A stretch of 47,726 nt of DNA from Escherichia phage HC6. Position 1 is the first letter of the stretch. Each line of letters opens with the position of its first letter. The stretch lies in sequence record OL362274.1; one strand, given 5' to 3'. Positions 15,937 through 47,647 of the stretch are shown piece after piece. Position numbers and translations under genes: made by a program. The notes under the pieces were generated by a model. The model was given only the letters and a program-made list of their open reading frames with translations. It ran no database searches and was not told where the DNA came from.

Positions 15937-16755
15937 ATGGCTGTCAGGTACGAAATAAACACAACTCCGGATGACGGGGAGGTTTTGCTTAGCGAAACCA
16001 TGTCAGCAGACTGGACTGCATTGCAGGTACAGATTGTGCCATTAAACTCTTCCGGCGGTTACGAGCCATTAACAAGCGGCTCTGTTTCCGTAATGGTATC
16101 TCCGTTCGCGTCTGGTGATTTCTGGATTGACGTCAACAATAATAATTATTATGGCGTGGCGCTGCGACTGAAAGTGATCAAGTCCCAAATGCCTGTTGGC
16201 ATTGCATCTCTGAAAGTCCTGGTATGGCGAGCTGCTACATCAGTGCCATCAAGTCAGGTTGTGGCGCAGTCCTACGCCGAACTTGCCAACAAGCAAGGTA
16301 AGTTATTCACCGCATCGCGTCGCGTGACTGGCGTTGCTGGCGGGGCTAACCTTGACAGCATTTTTATTACCGGTTCAAAGCAGGTCGTGTTTAATCAACG
16401 CATCATCGGATACACTGGCAAAGGTGTTGTAGCGTCAATCTACCGTGGGGCTGTGGTCACTGGAGGCACTGCCGCGGAGATTAATAATCCCAACGACATA
16501 ACGCCTCAGGCAGCTACGGCGCAGTTACTTACTGGTGCTACCGTGACAAACATTGGACAGCTGACGGTGGCAGCAACATACAGTGAGGGTAACGCATCGA
16601 ATCAGGGTCAGGGTAACTCGCAGGCGAAACTCGGCGAGCAGATTATCATGGCACCAAATACGACGTATTTGCTTCGCATAACATCACTGGACACTGCGGT
16701 GCAAAATATCAATGCATATGTGTCATGGTTTGAGGATGATACTTATCTGGCGTGA
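15937..16755 (+). CDS. putative virion structural protein
   Basis: 272 aa from ATG 15937; Gly/Thr/Val-rich beta-like composition; track start 15910 lies inside terminator. Confidence 0.45.
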   Translation: MAVRYEINTTPDDGEVLLSETMSADWTALQVQIVPLNSSGGYEPLTSGSVSVMVSPFASGDFWIDVNNNNYYGVALRLKVIKSQMPVGIASLKVLVWRAATSVPSSQVVAQSYAELANKQGKLFTASRRVTGVAGGANLDSIFITGSKQVVFNQRIIGYTGKGVVASIYRGAVVTGGTAAEINNPNDITPQAATAQLLTGATVTNIGQLTVAATYSEGNASNQGQGNSQAKLGEQIIMAPNTTYLLRITSLDTAVQNINAYVSWFEDDTYLA

Positions 16756-40507: not shown

Positions 40508-40764
40508 ATCCTCGCACCAAGACGTTCAATTGTTTGTTTCTTTGTTTCATCATCTATTCCGCTATAAAAATACATATAACTAAGATTCCATAGATAATCT
40601 TCTGGTCGCTCATCGGCAAACAAATCATCCCACTCAAAAATCCATTCTCCAGTTCTCTGTCTTCTGTATATGGTTAGCCATGTATTGCTTCGTGGCGGGT
40701 ATCCGAAGGCAACAGGGATTGGCTTGCCATGAAAAATCCTCTTAAAAATGCTATCAAGGAACAC
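40501..40764 (-). CDS. hypothetical protein
   Basis: 87 aa, Trp/Tyr-rich. Confidence 0.5.
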   Translation of the reverse strand: MFLDSIFKRIFHGKPIPVAFGYPPRSNTWLTIYRRQRTGEWIFEWDDLFADERPEDYLWNLSYMYFYSGIDDETKKQTIERLGARIW

Positions 40765-40786
40765 TGCTATATCCTTTTATTGATGT

Positions 40787-40824
40787 TTCTACGTCAGTTA
40801 GCTTATACTCAATCTACACCAACA
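40787..40824. promoter_or_regulatory. divergent promoter region with paired TCTACRYCA motifs
   Basis: TTTCTACGTCAG and TCAATCTACACCAACA between divergent genes 40764 and 40840. Confidence 0.4.
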
Positions 40825-40839
40825 ATCAAGGGTAAATTT

Positions 40840-41793
40840 ATGAGATACGACTGGAAAGACATTGAGCCAAAAATGATCGGAAATTGGCAAGCTGCCATCA
40901 TGTCTATCGTCAATGTGGATAGCAGAGTTTTCAATGGCAAGCACCAGCCATGCCCGTCATGCTCAGGAAAAGACAGGTATCGCTTTGATGACAACTTCGA
41001 AACAAAAGGCGATGGCGGCGCAATCTGCAATCAGTGCGGTTCCGGCAGCGGCATGAATTGGCTGATGAAACTCTCCGGAATGAGCTTTCCTGAAGCGCTG
41101 GAGGCACTTGGTGGATTCCTGAATATGCACCCGCGTGAAAAGCTGGAGGCAATCAGGAAAGAGCTACCGAAGATAAATCACAGCGATGACTTCATCACCG
41201 AGCAGGAAGTCGCAGCAATCATGGCTAAAACGACTCGTGTCGCGATGAATGAGTGGACTTTGATAAATGGTATTGGTTGCGACGTTAACGTCACCAGAGG
41301 CAAATCTGGAGAACTTATTGCGGTTGAGATGATGCGAGCTGACACAATGAAACTGTGCAACGTGGCATTCATTGGCATGGATGGTGATTCAATCAGAACG
41401 TTTTTCCGCGCAGGATACAACAAGGACTCAGCCATCAACGGCAAACTCACGCGCGGCGCGATAAGCCCAATCGGAGAAGACAACGGGAAGTTCATTTACC
41501 TGGTATCTGATTATGCCGATGCGTGGAAATGCCACTACTTCACTGGCGCTCATGCCTGGTGCTGCTGGTCGCCGGAAAACATGTGGGAGGTTGTGCGCTC
41601 GGTTAGCGATGAAACGAAGGCGAGATTGCGCTGCATAGTTAATTATAAATTCGACGAACTTTGCGCTGCGGAAAATGCAGGGCTTCCGGTGATGCTTCCT
41701 GATGATGCTGAAACAATAAGGATGGCAAAGAGAATCAGGAGAAAGATTTATGACGCTGGCGAGCTGATAGAGAAAATGCCAGTAAGCAGATAA
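40840..41793 (+). CDS. DNA primase (zinc-binding plus Toprim-like)
   Basis: 317 aa from ATG 40840; CPSCSGKDRYRFDD...CNQCGSGSG zinc-binding motif typical of phage primases. Confidence 0.65.
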   Translation: MRYDWKDIEPKMIGNWQAAIMSIVNVDSRVFNGKHQPCPSCSGKDRYRFDDNFETKGDGGAICNQCGSGSGMNWLMKLSGMSFPEALEALGGFLNMHPREKLEAIRKELPKINHSDDFITEQEVAAIMAKTTRVAMNEWTLINGIGCDVNVTRGKSGELIAVEMMRADTMKLCNVAFIGMDGDSIRTFFRAGYNKDSAINGKLTRGAISPIGEDNGKFIYLVSDYADAWKCHYFTGAHAWCCWSPENMWEVVRSVSDETKARLRCIVNYKFDELCAAENAGLPVMLPDDAETIRMAKRIRRKIYDAGELIEKMPVSR

Positions 41794-42586: not shown

Positions 42587-44139
42587 TTCAACCTCGGATT
42601 TATGTGAACAGTGTTTCCGATAAATACGCAGTAACCATCCTCTTCAAGTGATGGCAATACACTTGATCTGAGTCGGTCATAAATTTTAGGTATCCCTTTG
42701 AATGGTCGCACGTTTTTAAGTGAATCATAAAGCCACTTCACCGTTACGCTATTTTTCCCTTTCTGAGCGGCGGAGCGTAGTTTTTCGGCAACAACATCAA
42801 ACTCAGATCGTTCACCAGCATACCCATTTGATTCAACAGCATCAGTGAACGTTTTTGTCAGTGCGTCATAAACACTGATGGCGCGACTAATTTCATTTTC
42901 ACCGATAATCTTTGAACGCTTTCCTCCATCGCACCAGTTTTCAGCAGCGTGAAATATTGCTGCCAGACGTATTATTTGCTTATCAGCTTTACCCATCGCG
43001 CCACGAAGAAGAACGTGGTCCCACTTACCGCCGGGAAGGAAGTTTTTCTCCCACTGATTTCGTAACAGGCCGATCATTCTTGCTGAGTCATTGTGAAGCG
43101 TCAGTTTTGTTTTTTCTGCTGACACAACATTATGTATAAATCTTGCATATTCCGACCTCAAGCTGTCTGGCATTGGCTTGCTTACAGGGCAATCATTAAC
43201 CATGTCCCAGTGTTCGCGATAGCCAAGCATTGATTGCTCTCGCAACATCAGGAAACGTTCAGAAAGACCGTTCCCCCTGTCGCCAGCGGCAAGAATGGCA
43301 TCAATACTTTCATCCTGCGCAATCACACTTATGTTTCCAAGCACGTAACCAGATGAAACGCCACGACCAACACGAGCAGAGCCAATGAATCCGCCATCCC
43401 ATCCCTTCAGGATTACTTCGGCGTTTGCCTTTCCACCTTCTTTTCCGTAAGAAAGGCCAAGGCATGTGTTAAGAACGCTTGCCTCGTCACTTATCAGATT
43501 AAAAAAACCACCTTCATGAATGGCCTGATGCTGAACAGCCTCCGGAGTTGCGTCCGTCAGTGGATATGTGATCGTATAAAGCTCCTCCAGCTTCTCCTTT
43601 TCGCGAGCAATATCATCTCCGATTAGTGCCTTTGCATTCTGATTACTGGCCTCTTTGTATGCCTTCATCAGTTCTTCGATGCGAAGATTTATTTTTATGA
43701 TTTGCTTTTCCATCTTTTTAGAAAGGTTGTCATATTCAATCTTCACCGGATTCATGTGCATTGAGTTGATGGCTGTTTTCCCTGCTGATGGAGGCTGAGA
43801 AGTCACCACGTAAAGAGAGACTGGAAGTTCTGAATGGTAATACTCAACGCTAAAGTTTCTCGTCATTGCGCTGGCAACGCACCCAAGTAAATGCATGAAC
43901 GATGTATTTATTGGGAACTGAACTGCGCGAGCTGCAGCGATTGCATAACGAGACAGCAAATCAGTCCGGTGCTCACTGGTCAGTTCTGTTTCTGAGTACG
44001 TTACATCGCGCTCCTTTCCTTCCTTGATGTCAAGCCACATGTTAGAACTTGGTGTCATGCCATGATGGAAGGCAACGCGAGCCGGAGATACTTTTAACTC
44101 CCTTGCTTCGTTGAAGATGTCTTGCGCTGTGATCATCAT
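42583..44139 (-). CDS. putative replication-associated ATPase (DUF3987-like)
   Basis: 518 aa; P-loop-like SQPPSAGKT and DEAS-like LISDEAS; beside candidate origin. Confidence 0.45.
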   Translation of the reverse strand: MMITAQDIFNEARELKVSPARVAFHHGMTPSSNMWLDIKEGKERDVTYSETELTSEHRTDLLSRYAIAAARAVQFPINTSFMHLLGCVASAMTRNFSVEYYHSELPVSLYVVTSQPPSAGKTAINSMHMNPVKIEYDNLSKKMEKQIIKINLRIEELMKAYKEASNQNAKALIGDDIAREKEKLEELYTITYPLTDATPEAVQHQAIHEGGFFNLISDEASVLNTCLGLSYGKEGGKANAEVILKGWDGGFIGSARVGRGVSSGYVLGNISVIAQDESIDAILAAGDRGNGLSERFLMLREQSMLGYREHWDMVNDCPVSKPMPDSLRSEYARFIHNVVSAEKTKLTLHNDSARMIGLLRNQWEKNFLPGGKWDHVLLRGAMGKADKQIIRLAAIFHAAENWCDGGKRSKIIGENEISRAISVYDALTKTFTDAVESNGYAGERSEFDVVAEKLRSAAQKGKNSVTVKWLYDSLKNVRPFKGIPKIYDRLRSSVLPSLEEDGYCVFIGNTVHINPRLK

Positions 44140-44375
44140 GAAATCCTTTTTACGTAAACCATGTCTTTGTCAGGATACCCAACCTTTGTTGAGAATTTCA
44201 TGCCTTCATTCCTGCGCATGAAGTAGTTTAATGCGTTCCTCAGGTTTGCAATGCCTCCAAACCTCTTCGAATTAATCATCACAGTCTCACCTACTGAAAC
44301 CGCCGACAACCCAGAAAGAGCTGCATTCTTTTTGCCGTACTTATCAAGTTTCACAAAAGCCTCCAACAGCAACAA
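44136..44375 (-). CDS. hypothetical protein
   Basis: 79 aa; first gene downstream of candidate origin on minus strand. Confidence 0.45.
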   Translation of the reverse strand: MLLLEAFVKLDKYGKKNAALSGLSAVSVGETVMINSKRFGGIANLRNALNYFMRRNEGMKFSTKVGYPDKDMVYVKRIS

Positions 44376-44430
44376 ATTATGATTGAATCATATCATAAGT
44401 ATTGATTCATGCAACATCAAATACGACTCG

Positions 44431-44730
44431 CGTGGGTAACGTGGGGCAGCCGTGGGGAACATCACCTTCCCCACGAACTTTTACTCTAAGTATATGTAAT
44501 ATAATAAAATTATTATTATTTGGGGTAATGGGTAATATTATTATTCATATTATAGATAGTAATTAACATAATATTAACAAATGGATTATTTGAATATATT
44601 TATAAGGGGATGGGTATGAAATCTGCCCCACTTACCCAAACATGTTAAAAGCCGCATGGCGCAAGGGTTTCCCGTGGGGCATACCACCTTCCCCACGACC
44701 TGCCCCACGGGCAAAAATTTACCCCACGAG
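44431..44730. repeat. iteron cluster flanking AT-rich stretch (candidate replication origin)
   Basis: seven exact CCCCACG/CGTGGGG copies plus two one-mismatch copies, both orientations, flanking about 140 bp of AT-rich DNA. Confidence 0.5.
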
Positions 44731-44750
44731 CACGTTTTTAACGCATTTAT

Positions 44751-44781
44751 GTTGACGTAGAATCATCATTGATGTAGATTG
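44751..44781. promoter_or_regulatory. promoter region with paired inverted TCTACRYCA motifs
   Basis: GTTGACGTAGAATC and TTGATGTAGATTG 30 nt upstream of ATG 44811. Confidence 0.4.
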
Positions 44782-44810
44782 AACTCATCGGAACAAACGA
44801 GAGTGAAGAG

Positions 44811-44957
44811 ATGAAAATCAAAGACCGTGAAGAATTTGAAGATGCACAGGCAATGGCACGCATTGCAGTTGAGCGCACAAACAAAAGCATTCCTGCAGAA
44901 GCATTCTGGAACGCAGCAATGCAGGCTTTAATCTCAGCGTATGGGTTAAGCAAATGA
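44811..44957 (+). CDS. hypothetical small protein
   Basis: 48 aa (MKIKDREEFEDAQAMARIAVERTNK...); first gene after candidate origin. Confidence 0.4.
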   Translation: MKIKDREEFEDAQAMARIAVERTNKSIPAEAFWNAAMQALISAYGLSK

Positions 44958-45137
44958 CAGGCGCAGCATTCGAACTTATTGCCAGTCTTGTTACCGTGGC
45001 ATTCATCATTATCGCAGTGGCAGTTTCCAAATCAGGGTATAAGGAGTAATAAGATGAGCAACTGGCATAACGAACACATCATGCAGCTGTATCGCCGTCG
45101 CATTAAGTCAATCATTAACTCTTGCGAGGTGCAATAA

Positions 45138-45590: not shown

Positions 45591-45868
45591 GTGAGGTTAA
45601 AACATACGCAGTAAACTGCAACGACGCGTGGCTCAACACAGATGGCGATGACATCTCTGACTCATATGTTAAGTATGCTGATTACGCAGCTCTTCAAACT
45701 AAATGCGATGAGCTACTTAAAGAAATTAAAAACATGCAGGACCAAGCCATTGATGATGGATGCCGAATTGCAGAGCTTGAAGAAGCCTTGCGAGATAAGC
45801 AGGCACTAATTCCTGATGAGCACGACACCACCAACCAGCAATTCGAAAGCCTGGCTAAAAGTGAATAG
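45587..45868 (+). CDS. hypothetical protein
   Basis: 93 aa, acidic; ATGA overlap with upstream gene. Confidence 0.5.
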   Translation: MSEVKTYAVNCNDAWLNTDGDDISDSYVKYADYAALQTKCDELLKEIKNMQDQAIDDGCRIAELEEALRDKQALIPDEHDTTNQQFESLAKSE

Positions 45869-45931
45869 CTACCCGTTCATATTAATTATCAGTGCGCTCT
45901 ATGTTGCGCACGCTTTAGTGGAGATGTATGG

Positions 45932-46153
45932 ATGACAACAAGAAGCGAATATCTTCGTGATATTTCTTATAAACTCGCAGAATGGTCTTCTGTTGTTAAT
46001 GACCGAGAGGCGCTTAGCAGAAAAACCCCAATTGAGCTTGAAAATCTTCTTGATGAAGCATCAAAGGTTATGATGGAGGAGTCTCATCTTCACAAGAGAA
46101 AAGAGATTTCCATTAGGCAGAAGTTTGCATTATGGCTTCTTAAACACAGCTAA
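45932..46153 (+). CDS. hypothetical protein
   Basis: 73 aa track ORF. Confidence 0.5.
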   Translation: MTTRSEYLRDISYKLAEWSSVVNDREALSRKTPIELENLLDEASKVMMEESHLHKRKEISIRQKFALWLLKHS

Positions 46154-46165
46154 CAGGAGATTCTT

Positions 46166-46273
46166 ATGACCAGACACCAACGACGTCGCTACACCGTTGG
46201 CGCTAAAATCTTCCTTGCTGTTTATGCGCTGGCATTGGTAGCAGCTATTGCGGGAGTTTTGCATTATGTTTAA
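46166..46273 (+). CDS. small membrane peptide
   Basis: 35 aa; AGGAG RBS 7 nt upstream. Confidence 0.3.
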   Translation: MTRHQRRRYTVGAKIFLAVYALALVAAIAGVLHYV

Positions 46274-46445: not shown

Positions 46446-46599
46446 ACAGAAAGTCTGGCAACTCGCAAAGCAGCACGAATTAGACGATTTCATCGAGAAG
46501 GTTGCAAAGACATTCCCTGACGCGCTTGAAGTCGTTCATGTGCAGACGCGAAATGAAAATGCATGGTGCTACACAAAAAATCATACAAATGGTAGATGA
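46429..46599 (+). CDS. hypothetical small protein
   Basis: 56 aa; in frame with track ORF 46366. Confidence 0.4.
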   Translation, partial: LMQTTKQKVWQLAKQHELDDFIEKVAKTFPDALEVVHVQTRNENAWCYTKNHTNGR

Positions 46600-47026
46600 A
46601 ATGAAGCTAACAAAAAAACAACGCGAAGAGCTACGCATGAAGTTCGGTGGTCGCTGTGCTTATTGTGGGTGTGAGCTACCCGAGAAAGGTTGGCATGCAG
46701 ACCATGTTGAACCAGTGCTACGTAAATCTGAGCAGTGCATGAAGGCAGCGGCGAAAGGGATTTTCAAGCTGAAGGCAACCGGTGAGCTATATCGACCAGA
46801 AGCCGAGCGACTGGAAAACCTTTACCCTGCGTGCGCCCCCTGCAATCTGATGAAAACTTCCTATTCCCTGGAAATGTTCAGGAAGCAGGTATCTCTTCAG
46901 GTTGCTCGTGGGCGCAAAAGCAGCATGAATTTCCGCACTGCAGAGCGTTTCGGTCTTATCGCCGTGGTGGAGAGGCCAGTTGTTTTCTGGTTTGAGAAAT
47001 ACCAGGAAGAGAACGAAAAAAAATAA
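46589..47026 (+). CDS. HNH endonuclease
   Basis: CAYCG...HADHVEP...NLYPACAPCN HNH motif; about 145 aa from ATG 46589. Confidence 0.8.
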   Translation: MVDEMKLTKKQREELRMKFGGRCAYCGCELPEKGWHADHVEPVLRKSEQCMKAAAKGIFKLKATGELYRPEAERLENLYPACAPCNLMKTSYSLEMFRKQVSLQVARGRKSSMNFRTAERFGLIAVVERPVVFWFEKYQEENEKK

Positions 47027-47206: not shown

Positions 47207-47647
47207 ATGGCGAATCCAAATCCAAAACACAAGTTTTCCTCTACAAATCAACCGCCTCCGCGCGGTAAGAGTTATCGCACAGTGCTGCTTGAGGCGCTTC
47301 GTGCTGCAAATACACCGATGAATGAGATTGAATTCGTCACGTATTACATCAATAGGGCCATGACATGCGAAGACGCTCAGGCAACTGGTATGCTTCGAGA
47401 GATATTCCTGCGGCTCAACCCAATTCCTAAGCCTGTAGCTCCTCCTGTGGAGTTTGACTTCCCTGCTGACGGAACTCCGGTTCAGAAAATGGATGCAATC
47501 ATCAAGGGTGTCTCCACTGGCGTCGTGCCTGCTGACATCGGCAAGATGATGGCTGACATTATCAAGTCTGGCCTTGATATTCAGGAAATCACCGAACTCG
47601 CAGCGCGACTTGAGCGACTGGAGAAATTGCTGGAACAGCAACAGTAA
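47207..47647 (+). CDS. putative terminase small subunit
   Basis: 146 aa, basic N-terminus, C-terminal coiled-coil-like LAARLERLEKLLEQQQ; would sit upstream of HNH and TerL if genome is circularly joined; weak. Confidence 0.35.
   Translation: MANPNPKHKFSSTNQPPPRGKSYRTVLLEALRAANTPMNEIEFVTYYINRAMTCEDAQATGMLREIFLRLNPIPKPVAPPVEFDFPADGTPVQKMDAIIKGVSTGVVPADIGKMMADIIKSGLDIQEITELAARLERLEKLLEQQQ

Follow-up and report, generated by a model that had tools for sequence, protein, structure and literature searches.

A candidate bidirectional replication origin beside the DUF3987 helicase gene of Escherichia phage HC6

The genome of Escherichia phage HC6 (sequence record OL362274.1), analyzed here as one window of 47,726 nucleotides, carries at 44431-44730 a set of short repeats, in both orientations, that flanks a very AT-rich segment and that an earlier note, made from the letters alone, had described as a candidate origin of replication. 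Based on comparative sequence analysis, we consider it likely that this element is a bidirectional replication origin recognized by the adjacent DUF3987 helicase, and that it would function like the origins of the Rep proteins of Staphylococcus aureus pathogenicity islands (SaPIs). The idea of an origin with an unwinding element finds support in a core that is the least stable duplex of the genome, in the recurrence of the layout beside homologous helicases, and in the exchange of the repeats together with the helicase. The anatomy of the element, its statistics, its duplex stability, its conservation and the co-inheritance of arrays and helicase were all computed here. The element would most likely be an origin of a known general kind, new for this phage group.

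Exact copies of CCCCACG or its complement are found eight times in the 47,726 bp, with seven of the eight located within 44440-44728. Dinucleotide-preserving shuffles of the whole genome contained 2.69 +/- 1.62 copies and none of 100 reached eight, the Poisson estimate for at least seven copies within any given 300 bp being about 8e-17. The seven exact and two one-mismatch copies counted in the earlier note, in both orientations around some 140 bp of AT-rich DNA, were seen again (44431-44728, around 141 bp with 81% A+T), as was the longer unit CACCTTCCCCACGA, which is present at 44463-44476 and 44685-44698 within a 30-nt direct repeat of 87% identity. The one-mismatch copies, ACCCACG (44431-44437, minus strand) and CCCCACT (44626-44632, plus strand), weigh little on their own, since such copies are not enriched genome-wide (67 observed versus 78 expected); the position of both agrees with the array pattern. 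The unit itself proved to be longer than the seven nucleotides to which it had been limited. Among relatives, the 9-bp palindrome arms covary (GGGGAA/TTCCCC versus GGGGCA/TGCCCC), and therefore the iteron is a unit of 9-10 bp with a consensus of about yTkCCCCACGr. Four iterons are located on each side, in mirror-image order (- - - + / core / - + + +) and with a dyad center at about 44580. On either side, two of them form a 25-bp palindrome, CGTGGGG-N11-CCCCACG, and each palindrome bears two extra single iterons outward (at 44431 and 44440 on the left, and at 44703 and 44722 on the right). As single-stranded DNA, a 9-bp hairpin is possible in the left palindrome. The only exact CCCCACG outside the element (16444-16450, minus strand) is an isolated single copy inside coding sequence. 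In the HC6 arrays the loops are too long for the canonical G-quadruplex pattern; in the metagenomic contig L017 (contigs and records of relatives are cited by our L labels), the left array GGGTGTGTGGGGTGGGGGTTGGGG (L017:269-305) fits this pattern on one strand and the right array fits it partly, on the other strand.

The segment between the arrays (44480-44620) has an A+T content of 81% across 141 bp, compared with 53% for the genome. Calculated over 60, 100 or 140 nt, no other duplex in the genome is as unstable. The least stable 60 nt are those at 44539-44599 (87% A+T), and the 100 nt at 44491-44591 are 5.6 standard deviations (SD) less stable than the genome mean, with the next-least-stable stretch of that size at 2.8 SD. 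Around 85 bp of nearly pure A+T lie between degenerate inner iterons, namely the pair TGGGGTAATGGGTAA on the left and CTGCCCCACTTACCCAAAC (44623-44641), its inverted partner, on the right. Thus, the earlier description of the core as AT-rich holds, but the core is not merely compositional, as its sequence is nearly invariant. Nine relatives retain 91-98% identity to HC6 at 44483-44632, as compared with 88-97% for the helicase coding sequence and 37-89% for other neighboring DNA. The box ACTCTAAGTATATGTAAT at the left core edge is also found in the Salmonella phage and Skatevirus vB_CECAV_048 (hereafter Skatevirus 048) despite its different repeats, and TAAGTA-like copies are present in L017, L021 and L022. 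Regarding sites for host factors, no DnaA box, no IHF consensus and no GATC was found in 44376-44810. Genome-wide, there are just 52 GATC sites in 47.7 kb, or about one per 920 bp, which points to sites for Dam or restriction being avoided. In several database records, short genes for a "hypothetical protein" are annotated over the arrays or the core (L019:1-153, Ymer CDS0001; L005:2403-2510 and 2611-2751; L004:2611-2769; L007:2671-2805; L002:7311-7400). Given that their length varies and that the start codon is lost between close relatives, these open reading frames (ORFs) are probably not genes.

The same layout, short repeats in both orientations flanking an AT-rich segment, adjoins homologous helicases in a series of relatives that extends from VLCpiS13a to Vibrio phages. 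In these regions the motif density is 16-37 per kb inside and 0-2.3 outside, an enrichment of at least 10-fold in each case. Across the series the repeat drifts from CCCCACG to ACCCCA and ACCCCCA, and finally to GATGACACG. VLCpiS13a, with a helicase of 86% identity, has a CCCCA core in which the flanking CG is mostly lost, ACCCCA is found in the metagenomic contigs L017 and L022 (62%) as well as in L020 (42%), and Pectobacterium phage Ymer (49%) has TTCCCCACGG; the respective motifs are CCCCR in L021 (39%), ACCCCCA in Vibrio phage D71 (39%) and GATGACACG in Vibrio phage 1.256.O (26%). The placement of the element also varies. In HC6 it occupies the divergent region upstream of the helicase, in L020 it is directly downstream of the helicase and between co-directional genes, in L021 it is 0.9 kb downstream, and in Ymer it is 1.7 kb upstream, beside terS. 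Such variable placement fits a cis element tied to the helicase and not to a single promoter pair. A reading of L021 as a satellite similar to a phage-inducible chromosomal island (PICI) was ruled out, as the flanking gene encodes a ResIII helicase and not an integrase.

In two of these relatives, which are independent samples, the element has a different orientation with regard to its surroundings. When L017:250-600 and L022:1300-1650 are compared with HC6 44420-44760, the core has the same orientation and the flanking genes are mirrored, with local alignment scores of the core to HC6 of 49 forward and 25 reverse (shuffles, 21.9 +/- 3.8). With respect to its flanks, the core is therefore inverted. 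This inversion likely arose by recombination between the oppositely oriented arrays, and the function of the core seems to have been kept after it. An inverted core would suit an orientation-independent bidirectional element.

Closer to HC6, a 2-kb query of the region was 100% identical to Escherichia phage 6947 (ON637251), and the remaining close relatives are siphoviruses of Salmonella, Escherichia, Shigella and Klebsiella from the genera Macdonaldcampvirus (Vi II-E1), Caminolopintovirus (STGO-35-1), Deseoctovirus (C1, DS8), Shuimuvirus (IME207) and Akiravirus. The BASEL paper groups the whole cluster as Skatevirus and relatives and does not mention the element. In the records of Vi II-E1 (NC_010495) and Akira (NC_054647), the two 25-bp palindromes are annotated as repeat_region with no function assigned, the left palindrome of HC6 corresponding to one such feature of Vi II-E1, and the Akira record is linearized between the two. 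Across all phages bearing CCCCACG arrays, the helicase is 98-100% identical. The comparison with Skatevirus 048 speaks for a joint exchange. This phage shares with HC6 the primase (94% identical), an 87-aa neighbor (95%), the ResIII helicase (83%), the predicted rightward promoter P_R and the early genes; what fills the slot from primase to P_R is a helicase-like protein of 495 aa, non-homologous to that of HC6, and an AT-rich segment of its own with different repeats (GGATAA...) around it, and homology to HC6 picks up again just upstream of the P_R -35. Because both have been replaced between conserved flanks, we take the repeats to move with the helicase, the two being exchanged together as one cassette. 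Of the genes in the swapped cassette, all CCCCAC-array phages share the helicase alone, and accessory small genes vary in their presence. In PHROG "DNA primase" families, only the helicase-like part at the C-terminus is matched by the 495-aa protein of the Skatevirus 048 slot (L014:3150-3440), and the slot retains the box TTTTACTaCTAAGTATATGTA, which HC6 has at the core edge. Among the matches listed in a palindrome scan of IMG/VR, most were single and chance-like; arrays in DNA of 43-46% G+C were present at only 3 of the 120 loci, all of them with a helicase of 98-99.8% identity, and two further many-copy loci were located in DNA of 71-73% G+C. No informative relative of the helicase was found in the plasmid collection.

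The element has a minus-strand operon (a 72-aa ORF with the DUF3987 helicase) on one side and small genes of the plus strand on the other, so that its location had been correctly described in the earlier note, and the array begins 292 bp from the helicase start codon. DUF3987 proteins are MCM-related replicative helicases of superfamily 6 (SF6) with a winged helix-turn-helix at the C-terminus (Kazlauskas et al., PMC4889955), and helicase activity has been shown experimentally for one of them (PMC11724360). The AlphaFold2 model of the HC6 protein, an MCM-like AAA+ helicase, has a pLDDT of 90.7, and its residues 443-513 have the topology H-b-H-H-b-b of a predicted winged helix. The 50 Foldseek matches listed for this model are all replication-complex entries, nearly all of them MCM subunits, which are also the best matches. 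A sequence search against solved structures (E <= 1) returned only an unrelated 109-residue chain. The Walker A lysine (K121) and the Walker B glutamate (E219) are invariant in 52 homologues. We infer helicase binding, melting and initiation at the element. In the mechanism we propose, the C-terminal winged helix would bind the iterons, with one oligomer assembling per array, the AT-rich DNA between the inner iterons would melt, and the helicase would then load itself in opposite directions and bring in the P4-alpha-type primase (40729-41793), which a separate gene encodes. The primase is the presumed partner of the helicase and would not be array-specific, considering its conservation in Skatevirus 048, whose repeats differ. 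Transcription from P_R and from its leftward counterpart P_L probably aids opening. The bound helicase may in turn modulate both promoters, as many initiators do, and a dual role is plausible.

Among known systems, the nearest functional parallel is offered by SaPI Rep. Its origins have an AT-rich center with 6-12 short iterons around it, which stand on both sides in opposite orientations, and lie beside the gene of a self-loading helicase, in which a C-terminal winged helix binds the iterons and the origin is melted without ATP (PMC9371898). The HC6 element resembles those of SaPI and PICI Rep proteins in having at least two iterons per side (four in HC6) in opposite orientation around an AT-rich center, in adjoining the gene of the helicase-initiator (among the HC6 relatives the side varies and the distance is 0-1.7 kb), in the C-terminal winged helix of the helicase (predicted in HC6), in a primase that is separate or fused, and in the absence of DnaA boxes. 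It differs in that the helicase belongs to DUF3987, with MCM subunits as best fold matches and no demonstrable homology to SaPI Rep, in that the iterons measure 9-10 bp and are partly placed in 25-bp palindromes, and in that it belongs to a lytic siphovirus, where divergent promoters flank it and the helicase operon lies downstream. By analogy, the element would work like the SaPI Rep type of origin; we do not class it in the SaPI family because the helicase is not demonstrably homologous to SaPI Rep.

Other origins share parts of this design. In phage P4, ori and crr carry octamer iterons in both orientations that are bound by the C-terminal winged helix of the alpha primase-helicase. HC6 has a primase with a P4-alpha-type zinc ribbon (PF08273); in contrast to P4, it encodes primase and helicase in separate genes, its helicase is of another family, and no second, crr-like cluster of CCCCACG was found in the genome. 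Archaeal origins have inverted G-rich origin recognition box (ORB) elements around a DNA unwinding element where MCM loads. With these, and with the core origins of SV40 and papillomaviruses, HC6 has in common inverted short G/C-rich sites around an AT-rich melting region between divergent transcription units. The AAA+ helicases of SV40 and papillomaviruses assemble as two opposed hexamers, and the likeness to HC6 is one of layout only. The HC6 helicase is not homologous to large T antigen, E1 or Orc1/Cdc6, and its self-loading is what we propose. Iteron plasmids (pSC101, F, P1, R6K) and the lambda ori likewise have repeated initiator sites adjoining an AT-rich region, but HC6 lacks their tandem 17-22 bp direct repeats, DnaA boxes, IHF consensus and GATC cluster. 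It also lacks an initiator of the Rep_3 or lambda O type, its element lies outside the initiator gene, and the Pfam matches of the neighboring HC6 proteins are limited to DUF3987 and Zn_Ribbon_Prim.

The components of the element and of its surroundings are listed in Table 1.

Table 1. Coordinates of the candidate origin of phage HC6 and of the neighboring features
Feature	Position	Strand	Remarks
DnaG/P4-alpha-type primase, 354 aa	40729..41793	+	Pfam Zn_Ribbon_Prim (PF08273), E = 4.5e-12
DUF3987 helicase, 518 aa	42583..44139	-	Pfam DUF3987, E = 1.3e-34
Small ORF, 72 aa	44136..44354	-	GTG start after GGAGG; overlaps helicase start
P_L, predicted sigma-70-like promoter	44392..44420	-	TTGATG-17-TATGAT; 9/12 consensus matches; 10 bp outside left array
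Left outer iterons L1 CGTGGGTAAC and L2 CGTGGGGCAG	44431..44449		G-rich strand on top; kept in relatives with the 72-aa ORF allele
Left 25-bp palindrome	44451..44475		CGTGGGGAA-N7-TTCCCCACG; two inverted iterons
Conserved box ACTCTAAGTATATGTAAT	44483..44500		Left core edge; invariant in 10 relatives
Inner-left degenerate iteron pair TGGGGTAATGGGTAA	44521..44535		Preceded by a (TTA)n run; L017 equivalent TGGGGTGGTGGGGTAAT
Proposed DNA unwinding element	44536..44604		Most AT-rich, least stable segment
Inner-right motifs AGGGGATGGGTA and CTGCCCCACTTACCCAAAC	44605..44641		At the equivalent position of L017, CCACCCCAGTTACCCCAA
Variable spacer	44642..44672		Two unrelated versions in close relatives; identity falls to 61%
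Right 25-bp palindrome	44673..44697		CGTGGGGCA-N7-TTCCCCACG
Right outer iterons R3 CTGCCCCACGG and R4 TTACCCCACGA	44700..44729		C-rich strand on top
P_R, predicted sigma-70-like promoter	44752..44780	+	TTGACG-17-TAGATT; consensus scan
First rightward early gene, 48 aa	44811..44957	+	phrog_2180; flanking gene, outside the element

P_L faces the 72-aa ORF and the helicase, and P_R, which is also present in Skatevirus 048, L017, L022 and Ymer, faces a run of small early genes. The AlphaFold2 model of the 72-aa protein (pLDDT 83) has no significant fold match, and the homologue search recovered close relatives only. This protein was considered as the binder of the arrays and ruled out, as two non-homologous alleles accompany identical palindromes: in DS8, IME207, Vi II-E1 and Akira, a non-homologous 90-aa ORF with an AP2 domain replaces it and the palindromes are unchanged. 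The helicase-overlapping ORF of relatives is located at L007:2138-2410, L008:2138-2410, L001:4638-4940 and L016:223-495, and the Vi II-E1 copy of the AP2 ORF is annotated as a pseudogene, yet it is an intact ORF in one frame. By visual comparison, the C-terminal end of the 72-aa protein (...KFSTK..YVKRIS) recurs as KFxxK...YVKR(I/V), also C-terminally, in the ORFs that Vibrio phage 1.256.O and Skatevirus 048 have at this position. On the rightward side, a homologous 48-aa ORF is found at the same position in Skatevirus 048, whose repeats differ. A small early ORF (44979-45137, plus strand) matches the PHROG "activator of host PrrC lysyl-tRNA endonuclease" (Stp-like), and a similar gene is present in the early region of phage Rtp. 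Between the early genes and the gene at the small-terminase position (47207-47647), whose protein is annotated as DUF5681 in STGO-35-1, there is an HNH endonuclease ORF (46502-47026, plus strand). HNH genes are also found elsewhere in the replication modules of relatives, for instance between helicase and primase in Vi II-E1.

The main alternative is pure transcription control. A phage protein would then switch P_L and P_R by way of the repeats, as operator or activator sites, and the core would serve as DNA of a promoter or UP element. Both arrays stop 10-25 bp short of a sigma-70-like -35 hexamer, on its upstream side, palindromic sites are suited to regulators that act as dimers, promoter-like matches number 6 here versus 2.3 in shuffles, and the Ymer array is likewise just upstream of a TTGACT-17-TAGATT promoter. 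We nevertheless regard this alternative as unlikely. P_R is conserved, and presumably functional, in Skatevirus 048 with entirely different upstream repeats, the L020 element is downstream of the helicase between co-directional genes, and in L017 and L022 the core is inverted relative to the promoters. Moreover, the replicative helicase is the only protein that tracks the arrays. The swapped module encodes no helix-turn-helix protein or other regulator, and the 72-aa ORF can be replaced and its model matches no DNA-binding fold. A transcriptional role would also leave the extreme instability of the core unexplained.

The near-invariance of the core could also be read as a sign that it encodes a small RNA or a micro-ORF, the repeats then being incidental hairpins or terminators. 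There is a minus-strand promoter match inside the core (TTAATA-17-TATAAT, 10/12), a Shine-Dalgarno-like AAGGGG is followed by an ATG at 44617, and the left palindrome was flagged as terminator-like. This explanation is nonetheless very improbable. A scan of 44100-45100 against Rfam 15 (E <= 10) gave only chance-level hits, the best one, at 18.7 bits and E = 2.3, being far below its gathering score of 47. The -10 match is not retained in L022, and the palindromes have no proper T-tract in the relevant direction. The micro-ORF, with 10 codons here, has 46 in Bas79, and AB4P2, VLCpiS13a and IME207 have lost its ATG. In addition, the co-variation of the repeats with the helicase would be left unexplained.

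Even less credit can be given to a pac site, at which the small terminase (TerS) would bind both repeat clusters and a cut would be made between them, as at the pac of P1. In the pac sites of P1 and SPP1, repeat clusters flank a central region. The Ymer element is directly upstream of a terminase gene, and the records of Ymer and Akira are linearized inside the element. In HC6, however, the element is 2.5 kb upstream of terS, and the arrays were found to be independent of the small terminase; on this ground the explanation was rejected. STGO-35-1 and Skatevirus 048 differ in their repeats, with TerS-position proteins that are 97% identical. Conversely, Akira has an unrelated TerS (31-34% identity) with the same CCCCACG arrays as HC6, and HC6 and STGO-35-1 have the same arrays with TerS-position proteins that are only 56% identical. 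Finally, a functionless cluster due to chance or composition, to which the lack of genome-wide enrichment of one-mismatch copies might point, is practically negligible given a probability of about 1e-16 for the exact-copy cluster, the conservation of the element in dozens of phages and its recurrence at 26-86% helicase identity.

Returning to the replication origin, several observations weigh against it. The arrays are directly upstream of two promoter-like sites, the classic position of transcription-factor sites, and the near-invariance of the core exceeds the needs of a plain, compositional unwinding element and is not fully explained by it. No match to SaPI Rep was obtained by sequence or by fold, either in the search against solved structures or among the 50 fold matches listed, and the covariation between winged helix and iteron sequence is only suggestive. 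One characterized DUF3987 helicase unwinds 5' to 3' and is not known to bind an origin (PMC11724360). The T1-like phages Rtp and Sushi have no array adjoining the helicase gene itself. Finally, the check by GC skew proposed in the earlier note does reveal an inflection, with the cumulative minimum at 44727, but the result is non-discriminating and does not count as independent evidence: the coding strand switches there, and for this reason the minimum neither supports nor refutes an origin.

The T1-like phages carry helicases that are 35-39% identical to the one of HC6, and an origin was not found according to papers on phages of this group whose helicases are homologous (PMC7718038, PMC11447400). 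Rtp (NC_007603, L024; ends joined, 45750-46219 and 1-546) has, in its divergent early region, two TTCCGCGGAA palindromes about 208 bp apart, which flank an AT-rich GTAATTATTATTATTATATATATTAC... that is the second least stable 100-nt stretch of that genome and is located 2.4 kb upstream of the DUF3987 helicase. This palindrome site may be the T1-group counterpart of the HC6 element. In the searchable literature, which did not cover the Vi II-E1 genome paper, no description of this origin element was found, and the scope of the Skatevirus genome-reduction study was genes, the intergenic region being outside it.

More broadly, and as a tentative proposal that goes beyond HC6 and that we hold with clearly less confidence than the origin itself, the element could be one instance of an exchangeable cassette of origin plus helicase. 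In such a cassette, an MCM-like (SF6) DUF3987 helicase would recognize its origin via the winged helix, reading G-tract iterons in mirror-image order and loading itself there. Phages from the Skatevirus-like coliphages to those of Vibrio would have this design in common, as probably would the T1-like Drexlerviridae, and the core could flip without loss of function. If true, the cassette would define the long-missing origin of the T1 group. The group to which HC6 belongs is a large one of lytic siphoviruses, with many phages of Salmonella, E. coli and Klebsiella that have been put forward for therapy and biocontrol. A defined origin, together with a candidate self-loading MCM-like initiator, would explain the exchange of replication modules between phages as that of an origin-helicase cassette, and would also offer a simple bacterial model for MCM-type origin melting, as well as a handle for engineering or rebooting these phages.

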